Positions 5,943 through 39,123 of a stretch of 42,533 bases of DNA are shown here, piece after piece. This DNA comes from a bacterium (GTDB taxonomy: Bacteria; Patescibacteriota; Minisyncoccia; Phycocordibacterales; Phycocordibacteraceae): assembly GCA_021794425.1 (NCBI GenBank), contig JAJYQV010000037.1, positions 1 to 42,533 on the forward strand, written 5' to 3'. Both the position numbers and the translations under genes were made by a program. Every line of letters starts with the position of its first letter. Position 1 is the first letter of the stretch. The notes under the pieces were generated by a model that was not told the origin of the DNA, did not search any database, and saw only the letters and a list, made by a program, of their open reading frames with translations.

Positions 5943-6294
5943 ATATTTCTGCTAGATGGTAAATCCATGTGGTACAGAAAACCCACCACATGGGTGAGGA
6001 CTTTCGCCCTCCATACCGGTTTCCCGATATGACCAGTCAAGGCAAGCCCCATATGATGGGTTTTCTAGCCTCGACTGGTTTTTTCGACCATGCCCAGAAA
6101 TTTCTCCCCGGGTTTAGGTCATTTTTATTCGTGTGTAGAACGTGTACATAATAGCTCGTTTTCAGCTATCGTTGTAGACCCTAGCTTAGTATTAGGGGTT
6201 TGCGAAGAGGGCCTGCCAACAGGCGGGGTCTCGTGTCGGTGGGATTCTCGGTATCGTCCGTCTATTTACACTGTGGATTATTTCATCCATAGTC

Positions 6295-6318
6295 AGTATA
6301 CCCCCTAAGGGGTATACT
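6295..6318. promoter_or_regulatory. Candidate CsoR operator
   Basis: AGTATACCCC-CTAA-GGGGTATACT is a 10-nt perfect inverted repeat with a GC tract flanked by AT, ending 8 nt before the csoR ATG. Confidence 0.55.
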
Positions 6319-6325
6319 TCATTGC

Positions 6326-6601
6326 ATGAAATATATGGATGAAGAAAGTAAAAATCGCGTCATTCGCCGACTCAAGCTGCTCGAAGGGCAGGTTCGCGGT
6401 CTCCAAAAACTGGTGGAGAACGATACGTACTGTATCGATGTCATCACGCAAACCTCGGCGGTGAAGCAGGGGCTGTCCAATGTCGAAGATATGCTCCTTG
6501 AAAACCATCTGGGCCACTGCGTACATCGCCAGATGCACTCCGGTCAGACCAAGAAAGCGAAGGAGGAAATTATCAAGGTATATAAGCTCAAGAGAAAATA
6601 A
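6326..6601 (+). CDS. csoR: CsoR/RcnR-family copper-sensing repressor
   Basis: 91 aa. The RLKLLEGQVRGLQKLVENDTYCIDVITQTSAV...HLGHC pattern (DUF156) includes the Cys/His/Cys ligand set. Confidence 0.85.
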   Translation: MKYMDEESKNRVIRRLKLLEGQVRGLQKLVENDTYCIDVITQTSAVKQGLSNVEDMLLENHLGHCVHRQMHSGQTKKAKEEIIKVYKLKRK

Positions 6602-6604
6602 TAT

Positions 6605-8908
6605 ATGGCAGAAAATATATACAAAGTAAAAGGAATGCACTGCGCGAGCTGCGTATCCCTCATTCAGAATAAGGTTGGCAAGATTCCCGGCGTTGAAAAT
6701 GTCTCAGTCGGCCTTTCGACAGAAAAGGCAAAGGTTGTGTTCAAGGATGCACCTGTCGCGCTTAATACCTTGAATTCCGCCATCTCCCCATTCGGGTACT
6801 CGTTTGAAGATACCGGCAAGACCGCCGCTCAAATGGGCATGTCGGAGATGGATCACGCACGCATGGATCATAGCCAGAGCGGAGAGAAGAACATGGCTCT
6901 CGAAATGAAGTTCATTCTCCCGATGGTTGTATTTTCTTTCGCCATGATGCTATGGGATGTATTGAGTCAAAATGGCATCGTCCCTGCGATGCCGGAAAAT
7001 GCGTACGAAGTATCCCATCATCTCATGCCGATATTCGCTTCCTTCGTTCTCTTCGGCATTGGTCGGAGATATATCAAGGCGACGTGGGTCTTCCTTAAGA
7101 CCGGGATCGCCAATATGGATACGCTCGTCGGTATCTCGACAATCGTCGCCTTTATATACTCCTTCGCAGTTACCGCATTTGAAAAACCTCTCTCCGGCCT
7201 CTTGGATGTCAGCTCCAATTTTTATGACGTAGTAATAATCGTCATCGGCCTTATCGCATTTGGCCAGTTCCTTGAAGCCAGGGCAAAAAGAAAGACTAAC
7301 GAGGCTCTCCAGAAACTCGCCGAGCTTACCAGCAAATCCGCGCTCGTCGAACGTGACGGCAAGGAGATGGAAATCCCCATCGAAAAAGTGGAAATCGGCG
7401 ATGTGGTTATTATCAAACCGAATGAGCGCGTGCCAATCGACGGCCGCGTGGTAAATGGCAACAGCAGTATCGACGAGTCGAACCTGACCGGTGAATCGGT
7501 GCCGGTGGATAAAGCCACCGGCGACATGGTATTTGCTGGTACACAGAATTTCCAAGGACTCATCAAAATCAAGGTAGAAAAAGACAGCAAGGATACGGCT
7601 CTCGCGCATATCATAAAGATCGTTGAGAACGCACAGAACTCCAAAGCTCCTATTGAAAGAATTGCAGATAAGATATCCGGTGTATTCGTGTATGTCGTTA
7701 TCGTGCTTGCAGTCTTTACCTTCGCCTCGTGGCTCATATTCGCACCGGGCACATTCGGCCTGACCAAAGCACTTGCTCTCGCTATTTCCTCAACGATGGC
7801 GGTACTCGTCATCGCGTGCCCCTGCTCACTAGGCCTTGCTACCCCGACGGCAATCATTACCGGAGTCGGGACCGGCGCACGTCGAGGCATCCTCATCAAG
7901 AACGCCGAGAGTCTCGAGAAACTCGCAAAAGTGAATGCCATCGTATTCGACAAAACTGGTACGCTTACCGAAAACAAATTGTCGATTGAGGGAATCTTCT
8001 GCGAAGATAAGAATCACGTCTGTGATGCGGAAGACAAGGAATTCAAGCGATCCATTGCATATTCCATGACCAAATCATCGAAGCATCCGGTGTCGGAAAG
8101 TGTTGCCGTTTGGCTTCGGGACTCAAGGGCAGAAGCAGTACGAGTCGAGAAAATCGAAGAGGTGCCAGGCAAGGGCGTCACTGCTGAATTCAAGGGAGAG
8201 AAGTATTACCTCGGCTCCATCGGATACATCTCCGAAGTCCTTGCTCGAAAGCCGGAGAAGGTCAGGGAGAATTTCGATATTGGTCGCTTCGAAAGCGGGC
8301 GCGAACTGTATCTCGCTAACTCGAAACAAGTACTCTCGCTGATCAAGATCCACGATACAATCAAAGCAACGGCGTCACAGGAGGTGGCAAAGCTCAGGAA
8401 GCTCGGTTTGAAAATCGTCATGGCGACCGGCGACAACAAGAAAATCGGAGAAGCCGTAGCCAAGCAGCTCGGCATCGACGAAGTGTTTGCCGAGGTAAAG
8501 CCAGAAGACAAGCTCAGAATCGTCAAAGACTTGCAGGGCAAAGGATTGAAGGTGGCGATGATCGGTGACGGGGTGAACGACTCGCCCGCACTCGCACAGG
8601 CAGACGTCGCAATCTCAATGAGCGATGGATCGGATATCGCCATCGAAAGCTCGGATATCGTGCTTCTGAATGGCGATATTGGGAAGGTCGCGGAGGCGGT
8701 GAATCTTGCGAAGAAAACGAATCGGACGGTCTGGCAGAATCTCATCTGGTCATTCGGCTACAATTCGATTGGTATTCCGGTTGCAGCGGGAATTCTCGTA
8801 CCGTTCTGGGGCTGGACGTTGAGTCCTGCCATTGCCGGAGCGATCATGGCATTCGAAAGCGTGACGGTCGTTATGAATTCGCTTCGTCTTAAGAATGCAA
8901 AACTATAA
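6605..8908 (+). CDS. copA: Copper-translocating P1B-type ATPase
   Basis: 767 aa with HMA motif GMHCASCV, TM CPC motif (ACPCSLGLATP), DKTGTLT and GDGVNDSPAL. Confidence 0.92.
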   Translation: MAENIYKVKGMHCASCVSLIQNKVGKIPGVENVSVGLSTEKAKVVFKDAPVALNTLNSAISPFGYSFEDTGKTAAQMGMSEMDHARMDHSQSGEKNMALEMKFILPMVVFSFAMMLWDVLSQNGIVPAMPENAYEVSHHLMPIFASFVLFGIGRRYIKATWVFLKTGIANMDTLVGISTIVAFIYSFAVTAFEKPLSGLLDVSSNFYDVVIIVIGLIAFGQFLEARAKRKTNEALQKLAELTSKSALVERDGKEMEIPIEKVEIGDVVIIKPNERVPIDGRVVNGNSSIDESNLTGESVPVDKATGDMVFAGTQNFQGLIKIKVEKDSKDTALAHIIKIVENAQNSKAPIERIADKISGVFVYVVIVLAVFTFASWLIFAPGTFGLTKALALAISSTMAVLVIACPCSLGLATPTAIITGVGTGARRGILIKNAESLEKLAKVNAIVFDKTGTLTENKLSIEGIFCEDKNHVCDAEDKEFKRSIAYSMTKSSKHPVSESVAVWLRDSRAEAVRVEKIEEVPGKGVTAEFKGEKYYLGSIGYISEVLARKPEKVRENFDIGRFESGRELYLANSKQVLSLIKIHDTIKATASQEVAKLRKLGLKIVMATGDNKKIGEAVAKQLGIDEVFAEVKPEDKLRIVKDLQGKGLKVAMIGDGVNDSPALAQADVAISMSDGSDIAIESSDIVLLNGDIGKVAEAVNLAKKTNRTVWQNLIWSFGYNSIGIPVAAGILVPFWGWTLSPAIAGAIMAFESVTVVMNSLRLKNAKL

Positions 8909-12661: not shown

Positions 12662-12698
12662 TCAAATCCCGTCGCGGTTTAACCGCGACGGGATTTGA
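12662..12698. terminator. Bidirectional hairpin between the recombinase gene and tRNA-Ser
   Basis: TCAAATCCCGTCGCGG / CCGCGACGGGATTTGA form a 16-nt perfect inverted repeat with a 5-nt loop. Confidence 0.55.
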
Positions 12699-12956: not shown

Positions 12957-13853
12957 CTAGGTACTCTTTTTAGGTCCAAGCAAAGCTTGGACCCTGCTTT
13001 GAACCGTCGGGTGGGTCGAGAAGAGGCGCTCGATCCAGTCGGAGGGCTTGGTGCCGAACGGGTCGCCGATGAAGAGGTGTGCGGTCGCATGGCTCGGGCG
13101 CTGCATCGGGCGGCCGTACGCTTCGATCTTCTGCAGCGCCGCAGCGAGGCCCTCCGGGTAGCGGGTGAGGAGCGCGCCCGAAGCGTCGGCGAGGAATTCG
13201 CGCTTGCGGGAGATGGCGAGCTGGATGAGCTGCGCGGCAAAGGGTGCCAAGATGATGCCCACGATCGTGAGGATGAGCGCGATCTGGCTGCCGCCCTCCC
13301 TATCGCGATTGCCGCCGCCGAAGAGCGACATGCGCAGGAAGAGGTCGGCGAGGATGGCGAGGAAGCCCGCGAGCACGACCGCGACCGTCATGAGCAGGAT
13401 GTCGCGATTCTTCACGTGGGAGAGCTCGTGCGCGATGACGCCCTCAAGCTCGTGGCGGCTCATCATGGCAAGGAGTCCTGAGGTCGCGCAGACAACCGCG
13501 TGCTCTTGGTCGCGGCCGGTGGCAAACGCGTTTGGCGCTGGGTCATCGATGACATAGAGTTTCGGCATCGGGAGGCCCGCGGTAATGGCGAGGTTCTCCG
13601 TGACCGTATAAAAATCAAAATACTTGTCGCGCGTGGCGGGATGCGCGTTTGTCATGCGGAGCACGACCTTGTCACTGTACCAATAGCTCCAGACATTCGT
13701 GAGGAGCGCGAAGAGCACGGCAGCGTAGAGGATACCGGGCGCATTGTAGTACCAAGAGACGCCGTACCCTACCGCGATGACGAGCACGAGGAAACCCAAC
13801 ATGAGGAGCCAGGTGCGGCGGAGATTCGCGGAACGCTCTGCGTATAGATTCAT
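12957..13853 (-). CDS. htpX: Zinc metalloprotease HtpX (M48 family)
   Basis: HELSHVKNRD HExxH motif with TM helices. The start was trimmed to MNLYAERSANLRRTW. Confidence 0.9.
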   Translation of the reverse strand: MNLYAERSANLRRTWLLMLGFLVLVIAVGYGVSWYYNAPGILYAAVLFALLTNVWSYWYSDKVVLRMTNAHPATRDKYFDFYTVTENLAITAGLPMPKLYVIDDPAPNAFATGRDQEHAVVCATSGLLAMMSRHELEGVIAHELSHVKNRDILLMTVAVVLAGFLAILADLFLRMSLFGGGNRDREGGSQIALILTIVGIILAPFAAQLIQLAISRKREFLADASGALLTRYPEGLAAALQKIEAYGRPMQRPSHATAHLFIGDPFGTKPSDWIERLFSTHPTVQSRVQALLGPKKST

Positions 13854-14607: not shown

Positions 14608-15168
14608 TTAAAACTGCACTTTCACCGGCTCTTTGGCCGCGGCGTCGGCGTCGGCGAGCTCGAAGAGGTCCATCTGCGAGAAGCCGAACTGGCCCGAAAT
14701 CAGGTTGTTCGGGAACGTCTGAATGGCCGTGTTGAATGCCATGACGGTCGTGTTGTAGAAACGGCGGGCGGCCTGGATCTTGTCCTCGGTGTCGCCGAGC
14801 TCGCGCTGGAGCTGGAGGAAGTTCTGGTTCGCCTTCAGGTCCGGATACGCTTCGGACACCGCGAAGAGCGACTTGAGGGTGCCCTCGAGCATGTTCTCGG
14901 CCTTTGCCTTGTCGGCGGTGCCCGTCGCGCCCATGGCAGCCGTGCGCGCGGCCGTCACGTCTTCAAAGACGGTCTTCTCGTGTGCGGCGTAGCCCTTCAC
15001 CGTCTCGACGAGGTTCGGGATGAGGTCGTAGCGGCGCTTGAGCTGCACGTCGATATCGGCCCACGCCTCCTTGGCGCGGTTCCGCAGGGTCACGAGGCCG
15101 TTGTAGGCGAAAATGAGCCAGAGCACGATAATAGCTAGCACTATAAGTACGGTGGTGGTTGTGGTCAT
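14608..15168 (-). CDS. lemA: LemA family protein
   Basis: N-terminal TM segment, then YNGLVTLRNRAKEAWADIDVQLKRRYDLIPNLVETVKGYA. The start was trimmed to MTTTTTV. Confidence 0.85.
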   Translation of the reverse strand: MTTTTTVLIVLAIIVLWLIFAYNGLVTLRNRAKEAWADIDVQLKRRYDLIPNLVETVKGYAAHEKTVFEDVTAARTAAMGATGTADKAKAENMLEGTLKSLFAVSEAYPDLKANQNFLQLQRELGDTEDKIQAARRFYNTTVMAFNTAIQTFPNNLISGQFGFSQMDLFELADADAAAKEPVKVQF

Positions 15169-15190
15169 ATGCCTCCAGTATACTACGGCT

Positions 15191-17644
15191 ATGCAATCTG
15201 GCGACCCCATCGAGAAGCACTTCCCGCGGATGAAGAGCGGCCAGAAGAAGGCGCTCGGGAAGCTCGGGATACGCACGCTCCGCGACCTCCTCTACCACTT
15301 CCCTGCCCGCTACGAGAACGCGGGCCCGACCGGCACGATCACGAGCGTGACCCCCGGCGCCGAGGTCACGCTCTTCGGCACAGTGAGGAAGCCCGACGTG
15401 CGCAAAGCTTGGAAGAGCCGCAAGCCGCTCGCCGAGGCGTGGCTCGAAGACAACTCCGGCAAGATAAAGATGATGTGGTTCTCCCAGCCCTACATCGCAA
15501 AAACGCTCCACGACGGCATGCACGTGCGCGTGACGGGGCGCATCGCGGGCGAGGGCGCAAAAGCATACCTCGCGAATCCGAAAATCGAGAAAAGTGCGAT
15601 CGAGCCCGGCAACCTCCATAATTCCCTCTTCGCCCGTACCGAGGATTTAAATGTTAAACATTTAAATCCGGAGGATGTGCGCGAGTCGCTCTTCAACACC
15701 CAAGTAGTTAGGACATCCGATGTCCTAACTTCTGAAGAAGGGCATCCGATGTTCACGGACGCGGCGCTGCACAGCGTGTATCCCGAGAGCAAGGGCGTCT
15801 CCTCGCTCTGGATCACCCACGCGGTGAAGAAGCTGTTTGAAGCGGGCGTGCACGAGAGGATCGAGGACCCGATTCCGGGCGACATCCTCGCGCGCTACAA
15901 GCTGCCCTCGCTCGCGAGTGCGCTCGTCTTCATACACGCGCCGCGCAAAAAGAGCGACGCGGACGCCGCGCGCAAACGCTTCGCGTTCGAGGAGATCTTT
16001 GCGCTCCAGGTGGTGATGCAGATGCGCCGGCGCGCGCACCTCGCCGAAGAGGCTCTCCCCGTCACCGTCGACCGGAAAGCACTCCAGGATTTCATCGCCT
16101 CGTACCCGTTCCCTGCCACCGACGCGCAGCTCTCCGCGATCGATTCGATCGTCTCCGACTTCGAGCAGCGTCACCCGATGCTCCGACTCCTCGAGGGCGA
16201 TGTGGGCTCGGGCAAGACCGCCGTTGCCGCCGCGACGGCATATCTGGTAGTTACTTCACTCCCTCCCAAAGTTCTCGAACGTGACAAAAAGCTTCCAGAT
16301 GCAAGGCGCGGGCAGGCGATTTCTGGAGGCGTACTGAAGGGTACGACGGAAGAAATCGACGGGGCCCGCAACGCAGCAGCTGGAGCTTTTGGGCATGTTC
16401 GAGGAGGGTACCTCCAGGTCGCATACTTGGTCCCGACCGAAATACTCGCCAAGCAGCACTTCTCGACCTTCGTCTCCTATTTCAAAGACCACCCGATCCC
16501 GATCGGCCTCATCACCGGCAATGAGTGCCGCGTCTTCCCGTCAAAGATCCGCTACGAAGAGTCCGCAAAGATCTCAAAGGCGGCGTTCAAGAAACGCGTC
16601 GCCGAGGGCACCATCCCCATCGTCATCGGCACCCACGCACTCGTCGAGAAGACGCTCACGTTCAAATACTTCGCGTACGCCATCATCGACGAGCAGCACC
16701 GGTTCGGCACGATGCACCGCCAGAAGCTCGCGACCAAGGGCGCGGTTGCACCCCAAGAGTACTTCCATTTTACTAACGCGGATGACCGCGAAGTAAAATG
16801 GGGCGCGCCGCACCTCCTCTCTATGACCGCGACGCCGATTCCCCGCACGCTCGCGCTCACCCTCTACGGCGACCTCGACCTCACGCTCCTCGACCAGATG
16901 CCCTCGGGGCGCAAACCCATCAAGACGGAAGTCCTCGGCCCCGAGAAGCGCGAGGAAGCGTATGCGCGCGTACGTGCCGAGCTCGTCGCGGGTCGCCAAG
17001 CCTACGTCATCTGCCCGCGCATCGACGAGCCCGATCCGACCAAAGAGCTCGCGCTCCAGGCGAAGTCGGTAGTCGCCGAGGCGGCACGTCTGAAAAAAGA
17101 GGTCTTTCCGCATGCGACCATCGGCATCCTCCACAGCAAGATGCGCCCTGCAGAAAAAGAAGAGGCGATGCAGAAATTCGAGAAGGGCGAGACGCAGATC
17201 CTCGTGGCCACTTCGGTGGTCGAGGTGGGCGTGAATGTGCCCAACGCGACGGTCATACTCATCGAGGGCGCCGAGCGCTTCGGGCTCGCCCAGCTCCACC
17301 AGCTGCGCGGCCGCGTCATCCGTTCAAATCACCAGGCGTACTGCTTTGCGCTCCCCGAGTCGTTCGGGCAAGCGACCAAAGACCGCATGAAAGCGTTCAC
17401 GCAGGCGAAGAACGGATTCGAGCTCGCCGAGTACGACCTCGGCCTGCGCGGCGCGGGCGAGCTCACCGGCGGCCGGCAGTGGGGCGTCTCCGACATCGCG
17501 ATGGAAGCCCTGAAGAACCTCAAGCTCGTCGAGGCCGCGCGCACCGAGGCAGCGAAACTGGTCGCAGTTGACCCCGACCTGCGCGCCCATCCGACGCTCG
17601 CGCTGCGCGCTCGCGCCGCCGACGCCGAGATGCACCTGGAATAA
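15191..17644 (+). CDS. recG: ATP-dependent DNA helicase RecG, unusually long because of in-frame insertions
   Basis: Wedge-domain N-terminus, GDVGSGKT, PTEILAKQH, DEQHRFG, MTATPIPRTL and QLHQLRGRVIR. The start was trimmed to MQSGDPIEKHF. Confidence 0.9.
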   Translation: MQSGDPIEKHFPRMKSGQKKALGKLGIRTLRDLLYHFPARYENAGPTGTITSVTPGAEVTLFGTVRKPDVRKAWKSRKPLAEAWLEDNSGKIKMMWFSQPYIAKTLHDGMHVRVTGRIAGEGAKAYLANPKIEKSAIEPGNLHNSLFARTEDLNVKHLNPEDVRESLFNTQVVRTSDVLTSEEGHPMFTDAALHSVYPESKGVSSLWITHAVKKLFEAGVHERIEDPIPGDILARYKLPSLASALVFIHAPRKKSDADAARKRFAFEEIFALQVVMQMRRRAHLAEEALPVTVDRKALQDFIASYPFPATDAQLSAIDSIVSDFEQRHPMLRLLEGDVGSGKTAVAAATAYLVVTSLPPKVLERDKKLPDARRGQAISGGVLKGTTEEIDGARNAAAGAFGHVRGGYLQVAYLVPTEILAKQHFSTFVSYFKDHPIPIGLITGNECRVFPSKIRYEESAKISKAAFKKRVAEGTIPIVIGTHALVEKTLTFKYFAYAIIDEQHRFGTMHRQKLATKGAVAPQEYFHFTNADDREVKWGAPHLLSMTATPIPRTLALTLYGDLDLTLLDQMPSGRKPIKTEVLGPEKREEAYARVRAELVAGRQAYVICPRIDEPDPTKELALQAKSVVAEAARLKKEVFPHATIGILHSKMRPAEKEEAMQKFEKGETQILVATSVVEVGVNVPNATVILIEGAERFGLAQLHQLRGRVIRSNHQAYCFALPESFGQATKDRMKAFTQAKNGFELAEYDLGLRGAGELTGGRQWGVSDIAMEALKNLKLVEAARTEAAKLVAVDPDLRAHPTLALRARAADAEMHLE
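15643..15669. repeat. AT-rich palindrome inside the recG coding sequence
   Basis: GGATTTAAATGTT-A-AACATTTAAATCC, with 13-nt perfect arms. Confidence 0.9.
15706..15730. repeat. Palindrome inside the recG coding sequence
   Basis: AGTTAGGACATC-C-GATGTCCTAACT, with 12-nt perfect arms. Confidence 0.9.
16261..16408. repeat. ~150-nt imperfect nested inverted repeat inside recG, between helicase motifs I and Ia
   Basis: The outer arms share CCCTCC, TCGAAC and AAAAGCT..CCAG (16261-16298 vs 16380-16408). Inner perfect pairs are CGATTTCT/AGAAATCG (16317-24/16351-58) and CGTAC/GTACG (16330-34/16341-45). Confidence 0.7.
16765..16801. repeat. 37-nt hairpin element inside recG
   Basis: CCATTTTACT-AA-CGCGG-ATGA-CCGCG-A-AGTAAAATGG. 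Confidence 0.85.
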
Positions 17645-17731: not shown

Positions 17732-17807
17732 TGGTGGGCGTGCCTGGACTCGAACCAGGAACCGCAGAGGTATAAGCTCTGTGCTCTAACCATTGAGCTA
17801 CACGCCC
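17732..17807 (-). tRNA. tRNA-Ile(UAU), CCA encoded
   Basis: GGGCGTG TA GCTC AATGGTTA GAGC A CAGAG CTTATAC CTCTG CGGTT CCTGG TTCGAGT CCAGG CACGCCC A CCA. Confidence 0.85.
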
Positions 17808-20988: not shown

Positions 20989-21394
20989 GGGGGTGACCGG
21001 CTTTGACGGTCTGTCCTTTGAAAGACGTGCGACGCCGTGCATGCTCACCCACCACGTAAATCTGCGTGAGCAACGAAACTTGCCAAGAACACTCTTGCAA
21101 GCGTGGAGTCTCCGTACTTCGGTATGAAGGACTTCGCGTTCGCTCCCGCCTTCGCCTAACCGCGCCAGGCCGGACGACGTCTGTACCCTTGAGTTCCCTC
21201 AGTTGAGGATACAGGCGGAGTAATCTGAAGGATCGCTTACTCGCCTCCCGCCGAGAATAGCTAAATAAGGGATCGGGCAGGAATGGTTTCGTCGACGTTC
21301 CGCGCATCCTGCCTCAGACTCTAACGCCGACTACGCGTCGTAGACTCTCTTTCATAGCCAGATTCGGACGGGAGTTCAACTCTCCCCACCTCCA
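20989..21394 (+). ncRNA. ssrA: tmRNA (SsrA)
   Basis: The 5' end GGGGGTGACCGGCTTTGACGG and the 3' end GGACGGGAGTTCAACTCTCCCCACCTCCA form a tRNA-Ala-like acceptor with a G3:U70 pair. An internal reading frame ends ...FAFAPAFA-TAA. Confidence 0.85.
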
Positions 21395-21402
21395 CTCGAT
21401 TC

Positions 21403-27005: not shown

Positions 27006-27039
27006 GATGCGCCTATCATACCGCACTGACGGGCCACAA

Positions 27040-27078
27040 GCGGAAGACGCGCGCCGCGCAGCGGCGCGCGTCTTCCGC
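27040..27078 (-). terminator. Long GC-rich hairpin after the ABC-F gene
   Basis: GCGGAAGACGCGCGCCGC-gca-GCGGCGCGCGTCTTCCGC, with 18-nt perfect arms. The right arm touches the ABC-F stop codon. Confidence 0.6.
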
Positions 27079-28610
27079 TATCTCTCCAGATCGAGCACGT
27101 CGTCGATGCGGATCTGCTCGACGAAGTCGGGGACGTGGCTGACGAGGATCATCGCGCCCTCGTACTGGTCGAGCGCCTTCGCTATGACCGGCAGGTGGCG
27201 GAAGTTGATGTGGTTGGTCGGCTCGTCGAGGATGAGGAGTCCCGGCTGCTCGAGCACGAGCGAGGCGAAGGCAACGAGCCCCTTCTGCCCTTCCGAGAGG
27301 CTGCCTATCTTCGTGTATATGGTGTCGCCCGTGATGAGGAAGCTCGCGGCGACACGACGCAGGCGCTGTTCATCCGGCTGGCCCATGACCGCCTGGAGCG
27401 CGTCAAAGACGGTCGCATCGAAATCGAGCGTCGAGAAGTCCTGGCGGTAGTAGCCCACCTTCACACCCTCGGTGATGGTCGCGCCCTCGGCCGCACCCTT
27501 CGCGATGGCTTCGAGGAGCGTACTCTTGCCGATGCCGTTGGGGCCTTTCAGGAGCAGGTGATTGTTCTTGCGCAATTCGATGTTTGCCTTCTTCACCACG
27601 AGCTTGCCCTTCGTCCCGAGCACCGAGTAGCTCGTGAGCGCGAAGACGACGCCGGAGAGGTCCTCTTGCGCGGGAATGGTGAACGGCCGGATGGTCTTGT
27701 CTTCTTTGCGCACGTCGACTTTCGCCTCCTCCATCTCTTCGGCCTCGGTGCGCATCTTCTTGGCCACGAGGCGCATCTTGCCGCCCTTCTGCGCGAAGAA
27801 GTTCGCCTTGTCCTTGTTCTCCTGAATCTTCTTGGCGAGCTGCGCGTTCTTCCTATTCTCCTTCTCGATGCGGATGAGGATTTCGCGCTGCACGTCGTGA
27901 TAGTTGCCGGGGTACTGCTCGATCTTCCTCGTGAAGACGTCGAGATAAAGCACGCCGGTGGTAAAGGCGTTCAGGAAGTCTGCATCATGCGAAATGACGA
28001 CCACGGTCTTGTCATAGTCGACGAGAAACTTGGTGAGATGCTCAATGCCGGCCTTGTCGAGATTGTTCGTCGGCTCGTCGAGCAAGAGCAGGTCCGGGTC
28101 CTGAATGAGGGCCGACGCCAAGAGGAGCCGCGCCTGCTGCCCGCCCGAGAAGCTCTTCACGATGCGATCATGCAGCTTTTCATGGTGCTTGAGGTTGACC
28201 ACCTCAAGCACTTTATCGATACGCGGGTCAATGTCATAGACTGCGTGGCCCGCCGAAGCTTCAGCGTAGGAGGCGAAGAAGTCGCGCACGGTGAGCTCCA
28301 TCTTCTCGCGCGGGATCACCTGCGAGGCGAGCGCGACCTTCATGCCGTGCGCGCGGTTGATATCGCCGTCGGTCACTGCGCGCTCGCCCGTCATGAGCGA
28401 GAAGAGCGTCGACTTGCCCGCGCCGTTCTGCCCCATGACCGCCATCTTCATGCCGCGGCGCAGCGTGAAAGAAGCCTCGTCGAGGATCGGCTTGTTGTGC
28501 GACCAATTTCTCTTGCCCGTACTCGGGCTTAGAGAAATGGAAGTGTCCGTATGGACCCCGTATTCGAACGAAACCTCGTCGAAATTGATAATGCTCTCAT
28601 CCCGTGCCAT
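27078..28610 (-). CDS. ABC-F family ATPase (two ABC cassettes, no TM domain)
   Basis: GQNGAGKST / LSGGQQARLLLA / LLLDEPTNNLD in the first cassette; GPNGIGKST / LSEGQKGLVAFA / LILDEPTNHI in the second. Confidence 0.9.
   Translation of the reverse strand: MARDESIINFDEVSFEYGVHTDTSISLSPSTGKRNWSHNKPILDEASFTLRRGMKMAVMGQNGAGKSTLFSLMTGERAVTDGDINRAHGMKVALASQVIPREKMELTVRDFFASYAEASAGHAVYDIDPRIDKVLEVVNLKHHEKLHDRIVKSFSGGQQARLLLASALIQDPDLLLLDEPTNNLDKAGIEHLTKFLVDYDKTVVVISHDADFLNAFTTGVLYLDVFTRKIEQYPGNYHDVQREILIRIEKENRKNAQLAKKIQENKDKANFFAQKGGKMRLVAKKMRTEAEEMEEAKVDVRKEDKTIRPFTIPAQEDLSGVVFALTSYSVLGTKGKLVVKKANIELRKNNHLLLKGPNGIGKSTLLEAIAKGAAEGATITEGVKVGYYRQDFSTLDFDATVFDALQAVMGQPDEQRLRRVAASFLITGDTIYTKIGSLSEGQKGLVAFASLVLEQPGLLILDEPTNHINFRHLPVIAKALDQYEGAMILVSHVPDFVEQIRIDDVLDLER
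28503..28540. repeat. 38-nt hairpin element inside the ABC-F coding sequence
   Basis: CCAATTTCTCTTGCCCG-tact-CGGGCTTAGAGAAATGG has an AT-rich outer stem and a GCCCG/CGGGC inner stem. It encodes part of an extra ...ISLSPSTGKRNW... segment upstream of the first Walker A. Confidence 0.75.
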
Positions 28611-30354: not shown

Positions 30355-30394
30355 GGAAACGCGCGGCGGGCCCTCGGGCCCGCCGCGCGTTTCC
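30355..30394 (+). terminator. Long GC-rich hairpin, putative terminator
   Basis: GGAAACGCGCGGCGGGCCC-tcg-GGCCCGCCGCGCGTTTCC. The downstream U-tract is weak. Confidence 0.5.
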
Positions 30395-38882: not shown

Positions 38883-39123
38883 AGCAAGTTTGTTATATCA
38901 TTCCTCTTCGGCATACACCCGCGCACAACTTTAGCCGACTTATGCACACCCCGCACGCGGCAATTGATGCCGTGCCACGATTGTGCTACTCTCTGGGTAG
39001 GAGCATGCAATAATAGCTTTTTGAGCGCTTTGGTGTTCCCTCGGAGTATCCGAGGCATGGATTGAGTAATCAAGCCATAAAACCGAAGGATGTCGCCCAA
39101 GGAGACGCTGCTTCTACCAAAAG

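Follow-up and report, generated by a model that had tools for sequence, protein, structure and literature searches.

Two palindromes in the RecG linker

The recG gene of contig JAJYQV010000037.1, a 42,533-nt stretch of DNA from a member of the Patescibacteriota (the whole stretch is called the window below), carries two perfect palindromes in the segment that encodes the linker between the wedge and helicase domains. Judged from sequence comparison, both are probably short hairpin repeats of the repetitive extragenic palindrome (REP) type, or of its doublet form (REP doublets forming hairpins, REPIN), that have lodged in this permissive linker and are translated within it. Palindrome 2 and the degenerate unit that follows it (15740-15754) are one copy of a dispersed family of hairpin doublets. 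The mobility of palindrome 1 is unproven, and it would join the same class by analogy, through shared architecture and site.

The host gene (15191-17644, forward strand) codes for 817 aa counted from M27. Its open reading frame (ORF) opens at 15113, but M27 is likely the true start, in agreement with the 817-aa orthologue P0001 and with the starts of other orthologues. The product carries the Pfam domains RecG_wedge, DEAD, Helicase_C and RecG_dom3_C, and it is similar to the RecG of T. maritima (1GM5, E=1e-109). The names on the closest proteins are those of Patescibacteria (Minisyncoccia/Paceibacterota, near Kaiserbacteria). The window protein is long (817 aa vs 721 aa typical), and its wedge-to-helicase linker is expanded, with 46 codons from the first SLF to LHSVYP (15632-15769, forward strand), as seen in the orthologue alignment, in linker tables and in a gap in the alignment to 1GM5. 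In that last alignment the wedge-to-helicase stretch is 79 aa in the query and 30 aa in T. maritima RecG. Measured from SLF to the last two residues before the [YF]xES motif, the linker is 49 aa in the window and 13-14 aa in most of 120 close orthologues, and when the bounds are drawn closer (from SLF to [YFH]P[IVM]Y), a length of 10-11 aa is found for 73 of 116. The proposal of the first-pass annotation that the palindromes fall at extra residues relative to a usually short link is borne out by both alignments. Going by the alignment to 1GM5 alone, the linker would be a surface loop; an AlphaFold2 model built on an 18-sequence alignment was too poor for use (mean predicted local distance difference test score 48.7, predicted template modelling score 0.30). 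The insert is probably neutral for RecG.

Palindrome 1 (15643-15669, forward strand), GGATTTAAATGTT-A-AACATTTAAATCC, has perfect 13-nt arms around a 1-nt loop and reads DLNVKHLNP. Internally, a ATTTAAAT mini-palindrome stands on either side of GTTAAAC; stop codons close five of the six frames and leave a single one open. After a gap of 36 nt comes palindrome 2 (15706-15730, forward strand), AGTTAGGACATC-C-GATGTCCTAACT, with perfect 12-nt arms and the reading VRTSDVLT. Its core, GGACATCCGATGTCC (15711-15725), is the first unit of a doublet whose second, degenerate unit, GGGCATCCGATGTTC (15740-15754, forward strand), shows two mismatches to the 15-nt core, starts 29 nt after the start of the first and is read in another frame, as GHPMF. 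The frame is intact across both palindromes (...EDLNVKHLNPE...VVRTSDVLTSEEGHPM....), and the peptide stretches spanning the inserts are DLNVKHLNPE and VRTSDVLTSEEGHPM. At 22% and 44% GC, respectively, the palindromes are poorer in GC than the recG gene (~60%). These data confirm what had been noticed at first reading: two perfect palindromes, 36 nt apart and AT-richer than their host, lying in frame within an ORF (15113-17644, forward strand) that Pfam and 1GM5 identify as RecG.

Chance can be excluded as the source of these palindromes because shuffled versions of the window gave no match to either of them (100 shuffles each), because the window contains 11 perfect hairpins whose arms reach 10 nt or more and the shuffles 0-1, and because the z-scores for folding of the 130-nt palindrome region are -6.2 (DNA) and -5.4 (RNA). 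With their perfect 13-nt and 12-nt arms and these fold scores, both are short stem-loop-forming palindromic units of the kind, ~20-35 nt long, that makes up REPs and REPINs.

The linker site in related recG genes

For comparison, DNA of recG loci was retrieved from relatives, including L001-L008, L169, L170 and L172 (L numbers denote loci, P numbers proteins). The first-pass annotation had allowed that close orthologues might encode the same peptide without palindromic DNA, or that relatives might lack the palindromes; orthologues with the same peptides were found to carry the same palindromic DNA, and the palindromes are present in relatives. Palindrome 1 is identical at 27 of 27 positions in L001 (the locus of P0005), in spite of an overall identity of only 78% between the two recG genes, and its peptide, DLNVKHLNPE, occurs in both P0005 and P0006. 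In the linker of L172 (P0081) its right arm has decayed. Variants of the palindrome 2 peptide, VRTSDVLTSExGHPMS, were found in 13 of the 116 parsed orthologues, the window not counted. Unit 2, degenerate in the window, is intact in L002 (at the same 29-nt spacing) and in L003 (26-nt spacing), and the recG gene of L170 carries unit 2 alone. The units are read differently according to frame, as RTSDV (unit 1) or GHPM (unit 2), and because the two stand in different frames, constraint at the protein level cannot explain their conservation.

The linkers of other lineages hold palindromes of their own. L169 (P0002), the nearest relative, has a different 19-nt palindrome, GTGAAGGTC-G-GACCTTCAC, read directly from its sequence; those of L005, L006 and L007 measure 33, 49 and 49 nt, and L003 has two hairpins. 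All long linkers for which DNA was examined contain near-perfect palindromes with a 1-3-nt loop and a nested arrangement, X c X' l X c' X', and the one minimal-linker gene whose DNA was examined, L008, has no hairpin there. Judged by the peptide families seen among the 120 orthologues, no fewer than five unrelated palindrome families seem to share this single site, which is a recurrent putative landing pad for differing palindromes across lineages.

The window linker itself appears to be a mosaic, with an A-type cassette (like L001, containing palindrome 1) and a B-type cassette (like L002, containing palindrome 2) in tandem. The conserved motif P[ED]DVHxSLF that precedes the linker is present twice. 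Copy 1, PGNLHNSLF (15605-15631, forward strand), is identical at 22 of 27 positions to L172 and at 19 of 27 to L001, and so is closest to lineages with an A-type cassette; copy 2, PEDVRESLF (15668-15694, forward strand), matches L169 (P0002) at 23 of 27 positions and marks the cassette junction. The two copies share only 15 of 27 positions with each other. Binned identity over recG gives a P0002-like backbone interrupted by 88% identity to L001 (15611-15670) and 82% to L002 (15671-15730). This pattern points to recombination between diverged linker alleles as the event that joined the cassettes, and the two palindromes would be neighbours because two alternative cassettes, each with its own palindrome, came to lie in tandem. 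Linker cassettes of this kind could serve as markers of strain-level recombination. An 8/9-nt direct repeat around palindrome 1, TC[C/G]CTCTTC, was considered as a fresh target-site duplication and rejected, as it is part of the duplicated conserved motif, the copies of which have diverged (15/27).

A dispersed family of hairpin doublets

The family to which palindrome 2 belongs has a 15-nt core, GGACATC[C/G]GATGTCC, usually present as an inverted doublet. Its distribution was determined by scanning genomes, one for each species, with the pattern GACATCSGATGTC-N{2,32}-GACATCSGATGTC, which with 24 specified bases and two C/G positions is expected to give essentially no chance matches. The scan returned at least 126 core doublets in at least 120 loci; the family figures that follow are those among the matches listed. 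Within the Patescibacteria, doublets occur in Saccharibacteria, Kaiser-, Moran-, Falkow-, Yanofsky-, Jorgensen- and Nomurabacteria and Paceibacterota, and beyond them in Chloroflexota, Bacteroidota, Lewinella, Methylomirabilis and metagenome-assembled genomes (MAGs) of Gammaproteobacteria, a conservation across phyla that is partly a product of searching with the exact core. Several copies may be present in one genome: DATEBU01 has them on four contigs, RCNO01 has at least 10, and the Kaiserbacteria MAG CAWEXP01 has one in recG (L038) and another on a different contig (L100). The extended 21-mer of the window, TTAGGACATC[CG]GATGTCCTAA, is also found at the non-recG loci L098, L100, L107 and L112. 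The two units are inverted in 120 of 126 doublets, the spacers peak at lengths of 5, 13, 21 and 26 nt, and single units are rare (7, compared to 126 doublets). In viral contigs the 15-nt core had 27 single matches, which is the chance level.

None of the six frames of the 15-nt core contains a stop codon, and the extended unit, which includes TTAG/CTAA flanks, has one open frame only, the one used in the window. The conserved unit is DNA and not peptide, because copies are found between genes, at gene ends and, in frame within many conserved genes, in all three frames. As three frames are used to read the same DNA, a protein-level motif is excluded. A role as DNA uptake sequence is improbable, given a density that is far too low and the rarity of single units, and the architecture fits neither integron attC sites nor clustered regularly interspaced short palindromic repeats (CRISPR).

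Copies in frame within other genes

Forty-seven of the 126 doublets lie inside ORFs that extend for at least 60 aa on both sides, and their in-frame readings are xTSDV, GH[PR]MS and DI[GR]CP. Two to three of these 47 host ORFs look spurious by translation (L046, L116). Nine hosts were checked against NCBIfam, and eight are assigned at equivalog or subfamily cut-offs (TsaD, LigA, UvrA, TopA, LeuRS, PolA, GatB and GlyA); the ninth has LepA as its best match, which stays below the cut-off because the end of the locus cuts the ORF. Four additional hosts are RecG. The LigA copy forms an exact 11-residue insertion when compared to the structures 3JSL and 1B04. In a raw tally over loci L036-L155, hosts acting in DNA metabolism are conspicuous (RecG four times, LigA three times, DnaE, UvrA, TopA and PolA); the DnaE host also carries an intein.

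The first-pass annotation likened the recG palindromes to Rickettsia palindromic elements (RPEs) tolerated inside proteins. For palindrome 2 the central part of that comparison holds, as members of its family appear in frame in unrelated housekeeping genes at a number of the at least 120 loci. The sizes differ: with units of 15-25 nt and doublets of ~45 nt, the elements do not have RPE dimensions and are REP/REPIN-like in architecture and in their association with Y1 genes. For palindrome 1, no copy outside recG was found and the comparison stays unproven as far as mobility is concerned. Elements of this type can mislead homology modelling as well as gene calling, which places short spurious ORFs on intergenic copies.

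Association with Y1 transposase genes

Two of the at least 120 doublet loci carry a homologue of the two Y1_Tnp genes of L003 (the genome of P0079), one of which adjoins recG. In L071, a Paceibacterota locus, a gene with a Pfam Y1_Tnp score of 33 bits (cut-off 23), homologous to the L003 genes (E=7e-27), is bracketed by CACTTGGACATCGAATGTCCAAGTG and TACTTGGACATTCGATGTCCAAGTG. The flanking hairpins, CTTGGACAT-CGA/TCG-ATGTCCAAG, lie 20 nt upstream and 12 nt downstream of the gene and match the core at 14 of 15 positions, and a canonical doublet 3.7 kb away has the same flanks as these hairpins. The L071 gene also contains an in-frame copy of the hairpin (2418-2442), read as LGHRMSKL and placed ahead of the HUH motif. 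Each of the L003 genes is flanked by its own palindromes of the same nested architecture, and the Y1 gene of L041 likewise has palindromes of its own on its flanks. An in-frame copy of its own flanking hairpin was also observed within an L003 Y1 gene (13391-13405).

From these arrangements we infer that the family is spread by a Y1/HUH tyrosine transposase resembling the REP-associated tyrosine transposases (RAYTs). Such an enzyme would recognise the hairpin on single-stranded DNA, its binding and cleavage being predicted. In gene-dense, ultra-small genomes, copies would survive only at harmless places, such as surface linkers, and only copies that, by their length and frame, leave the host gene open would be retained.

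Comparison with known elements

REPs and REPINs occur together with RAYTs, which are Y1/HUH enzymes (Nunvar 2010; Bertels & Rainey 2011, PMC3116915; PMC3337134), and a Y1 gene flanked by cognate hairpin units is the defining arrangement of REP-RAYT systems. The elements described here appear, at the level of the family, to be alike in having palindromic units of 15-25 nt, mostly as inverted pairs with a short spacer, in their dispersal through genomes with many copies at gene ends or between genes, and in a Y1_Tnp gene that has a cognate hairpin on either side (L071) or hairpins of its own (L003, L041). They differ in several respects. About a third of the sampled copies appear to be intragenic and in frame, the local density of copies is apparently low, one core is shared across several phyla, the Y1 proteins score below the NCBIfam cut-off for RAYTs, and the Y1 genes contain an in-frame copy of their own hairpin.

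RPEs are described as elements of ~100-150 bp that are confined to Rickettsia and have no known transposase partner (Ogata et al. 2000, summarised in PMC10969869). Both kinds of element would be palindromic selfish DNA, found in frame in unrelated housekeeping genes of reduced-genome bacteria and read as extra peptide at permissive positions; in-frame insertion into unrelated protein genes is what the palindrome 2 family appears to have in common with RPEs. Here, however, the units are of 15-27 nt (~45 nt as a doublet) and apparently linked to a Y1 transposase, and the likeness is one of architecture. Neither the 25-27-nt units nor the ~45-nt doublet reaches the length of an RPE, which in this gene is approached only by a different insertion (16256-16417, see below).

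Small intragenic repeats resembling MITEs (miniature transposable elements with inverted repeats), namely intragenic enterobacterial repetitive intergenic consensus (ERIC) sequences, pneumococcal BOX elements and QMITE1 of Coxiella, are also reported to give in-frame fusions (PMC10969869). They too are non-autonomous and occasionally lie within ORFs, adding peptide, but have terminal inverted repeats, target-site duplications and an origin from insertion sequences (IS) of the DDE type. Assignment of the present elements to MITEs derived from DDE-type IS was rejected, because no terminal inverted repeats surround a non-palindromic core and the entire unit is a hairpin. A full-text search of the literature found no paper with the core sequence, and its top-ranked results link no RAYT, REPIN, REP or MITE to Patescibacteria.

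Origin of the palindromes

Several observations weigh against assigning both palindromes to REP/REPIN-type repeats. REPs are extragenic by definition, and the copies in the window, like 47 of the 126 among the matches listed, lie in frame within ORFs. Neither palindrome has a second copy in the 42.5-kb window, where no further match was found with up to three mismatches allowed, or in the ~20-kb flanks of recG in L001-L008. A window search for extra copies of both palindromes and of the other two recG inserts produced only chance 9-12-mers, and the density of elements around the window recG appears low. The two B-type units of the window both have C at their centre and are therefore in direct orientation, with the second one degenerate, so that the typical inverted doublet is not seen here. 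There is no homologue of the Y1 transposase in the 42.5-kb window; the transposase link comes from one locus, L071, and from a centre-variant hairpin that matches the core at 14 of 15 positions. The sole NCBIfam match of the L003 and L041 Y1 proteins is to NF047646 ('REP-associated tyrosine transposase'), below the curated cut-off, and the L071 protein has no match to NF047646. Palindrome 1 was seen solely in recG (window, L001 and, decayed, L172), with no copy elsewhere in the window, in 1.36 Mb of fetched loci or in a metagenome scan. That scan, with TTTAAATGTTWAACATTTAAA, gave 13 matches, which are attributed to chance because all lie in AT-rich non-recG DNA and are without GGA/TCC flanks. 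Lastly, immediately 3' of the decayed palindrome 1 of L172 there is a new palindrome with 10-nt arms, ATCCTGAAAT-N7-ATTTCAGGAT, on sequence that is unpaired in L001, which hints that local inverted duplication also acts at the recG linker.

This last point belongs to the alternative that fares best, although it is unlikely as the general explanation: that the palindromes are made locally and are not mobile, with fold-back priming or strand switching copying the linker in inverted orientation at a site tolerant of length, and with sharing between lineages due to descent or to recombination of recG alleles. The L172 palindrome, apparently built from sequence that stands alone in L001, speaks for it, as do the restriction of palindrome 1 to recG, the mosaic of alleles in the linker, and the form of the palindromes, which are perfect, without G-T pairs, nested (X c X' l X c' X') and with loops of 1-3 nt. 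It is excluded as the sole origin of palindrome 2, since the core doublet, and even the 21-mer, recurs in unrelated genes and loci (at least 120). For palindrome 1, the GC content of 22% is unlike that of the surrounding 60% GC gene, and an arm of 13 nt with a loop of 1 nt is not a multiple of three.

It is distinctly improbable that the hairpins are cis-elements of recG selected for their structure, whether as an mRNA hairpin that slows translation, as a determinant of mRNA stability or as a DNA cruciform. Differing sequences do form hairpins at the same position in many lineages, their predicted folds are strong, and compensatory changes, which count for the REP/REPIN-type explanation as well, preserve the stems: AAGTTGGACATC...GATGTCCAACTT in L170 corresponds to AAGTCGGACATC...GATGTCCGACTT in L002, and GGGAAAGTC-A-GACTTTCCC in L006 to GGGAAGGTC-A-GACCTTCCC in L100. 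However, about two thirds of close orthologues manage with a minimal linker (the 73 of 116 at 10-11 aa), and the sole minimal-linker DNA examined is free of hairpins. The same elements are also found between genes and, in all frames, within unrelated genes, the stems are perfect as DNA, without G-U pairs, and an Rfam search of the insert region matched no family.

An artefact of sequencing or assembly, such as a chimeric hairpin read or an adapter remnant, can practically be dismissed: the window does come from a metagenome assembly and amplification chimeras can yield palindromes, but assemblies of independent origin, from different projects and sources (NCBI MAGs, JGI, ENA and Logan), have the same DNA at this position, no reading frame is broken, the lineages differ from one another in lineage-specific ways, and the core matches no known adapter and no sequence in the literature.

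Short REP/REPIN-type hairpins translated within the linker remain the preferred explanation, and the comparisons suggest that such hairpins, possibly moved by Y1 enzymes, persist in Patescibacteria through in-frame translation inside essential genes. Proteins of the Patescibacteria contain numerous lineage-specific insertions that lack an explanation, and there is almost no space between the genes of these bacteria. If correct, this explanation would provide a concrete source for such insertions, would extend what is known of RPEs to another group of reduced-genome bacteria, unrelated to Rickettsia, together with a candidate mobilising enzyme, and would challenge the view of REPs as strictly extragenic. 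A wider proposal, for which we judge the chances to be evenly balanced, is that of a cross-phylum, translatable REPIN-like family with the core GACATC-S-GATGTC (13-15 nt) that has adjusted to gene-dense, ultra-small genomes by residing in their coding sequences, with copies in the surface linkers of housekeeping proteins (notably those of DNA metabolism), a pad in the RecG linker for at least five families, and Y1 genes that carry their own hairpin. Were it true, an extragenic location would not be intrinsic to elements of the REP type, and loop insertions in proteins of the Patescibacteria would have in the present elements a general source.

Other insertions in recG and other features of the window

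Two further in-frame insertions were found in the window recG. The first (16256-16417, forward strand) adds a net ~47 aa and forms a long hairpin of ~145 nt (RNA fold -74 kcal/mol, z = -5.4). Related DNA occupies the same site of recG in L005 and another site of that gene in L170/P0013, and lies between genes in L171 (3796-3894) and L006 (4774-4878). The peptide is contained in P0001 and P0003, and a HMMER search with its 54 aa gave three low-complexity false positives and two short ORFs that led to the genuine intergenic DNA copies; spurious ORFs of 51-52 aa have been called on these. The element lies outside the pair of palindromes first noticed but belongs to the same phenomenon, is RPE-sized and is the closest analogue in size of an RPE. 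The second insertion, APQEYFHFTNADDREVKWG (16739-16804, forward strand), has a hairpin with 10-nt arms, CCATTTTACT...AGTAAAATGG, and is present at the same site in P0068/L007. A related hairpin is intergenic in L137 (~2030-2110), upstream of a membrane-protein gene.

Elsewhere in the window, long perfect palindromes with arms of 18-19 nt and loops of 1-3 nt lie at or between ORF ends (12662-12698, 27039-27079 and 30355-30394). Neither these nor the other long perfect palindromes are repeated in the window or in any fetched locus; the three are probably terminators, though their stems are unusually long and perfect. Two orphan RNA motifs score above the Rfam gathering threshold, a LOOT RNA (93 bits, 5996-6120, reverse strand) and a DUF3800-V RNA (61 bits, 38999-39115, forward strand). 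Directly downstream of recG is a tRNA-Ile gene with the anticodon TAT (17732-17807, reverse strand), and a transfer-messenger RNA gene (20989-21397, forward strand) is next to smpB-type synteny in relatives. The GC content is ~0.50-0.54 over the first 13 kb, ~0.60 between 13 and 39 kb and 0.42-0.46 over the final 2.5 kb, shifts that may reflect islands or acquired DNA. The recG neighbourhood of L005 includes a gene of the bAvd/23S_rRNA_IVP type, a marker of diversity-generating retroelements, and a gene for a LAGLIDADG endonuclease (7874-8233 and 6273-6902).

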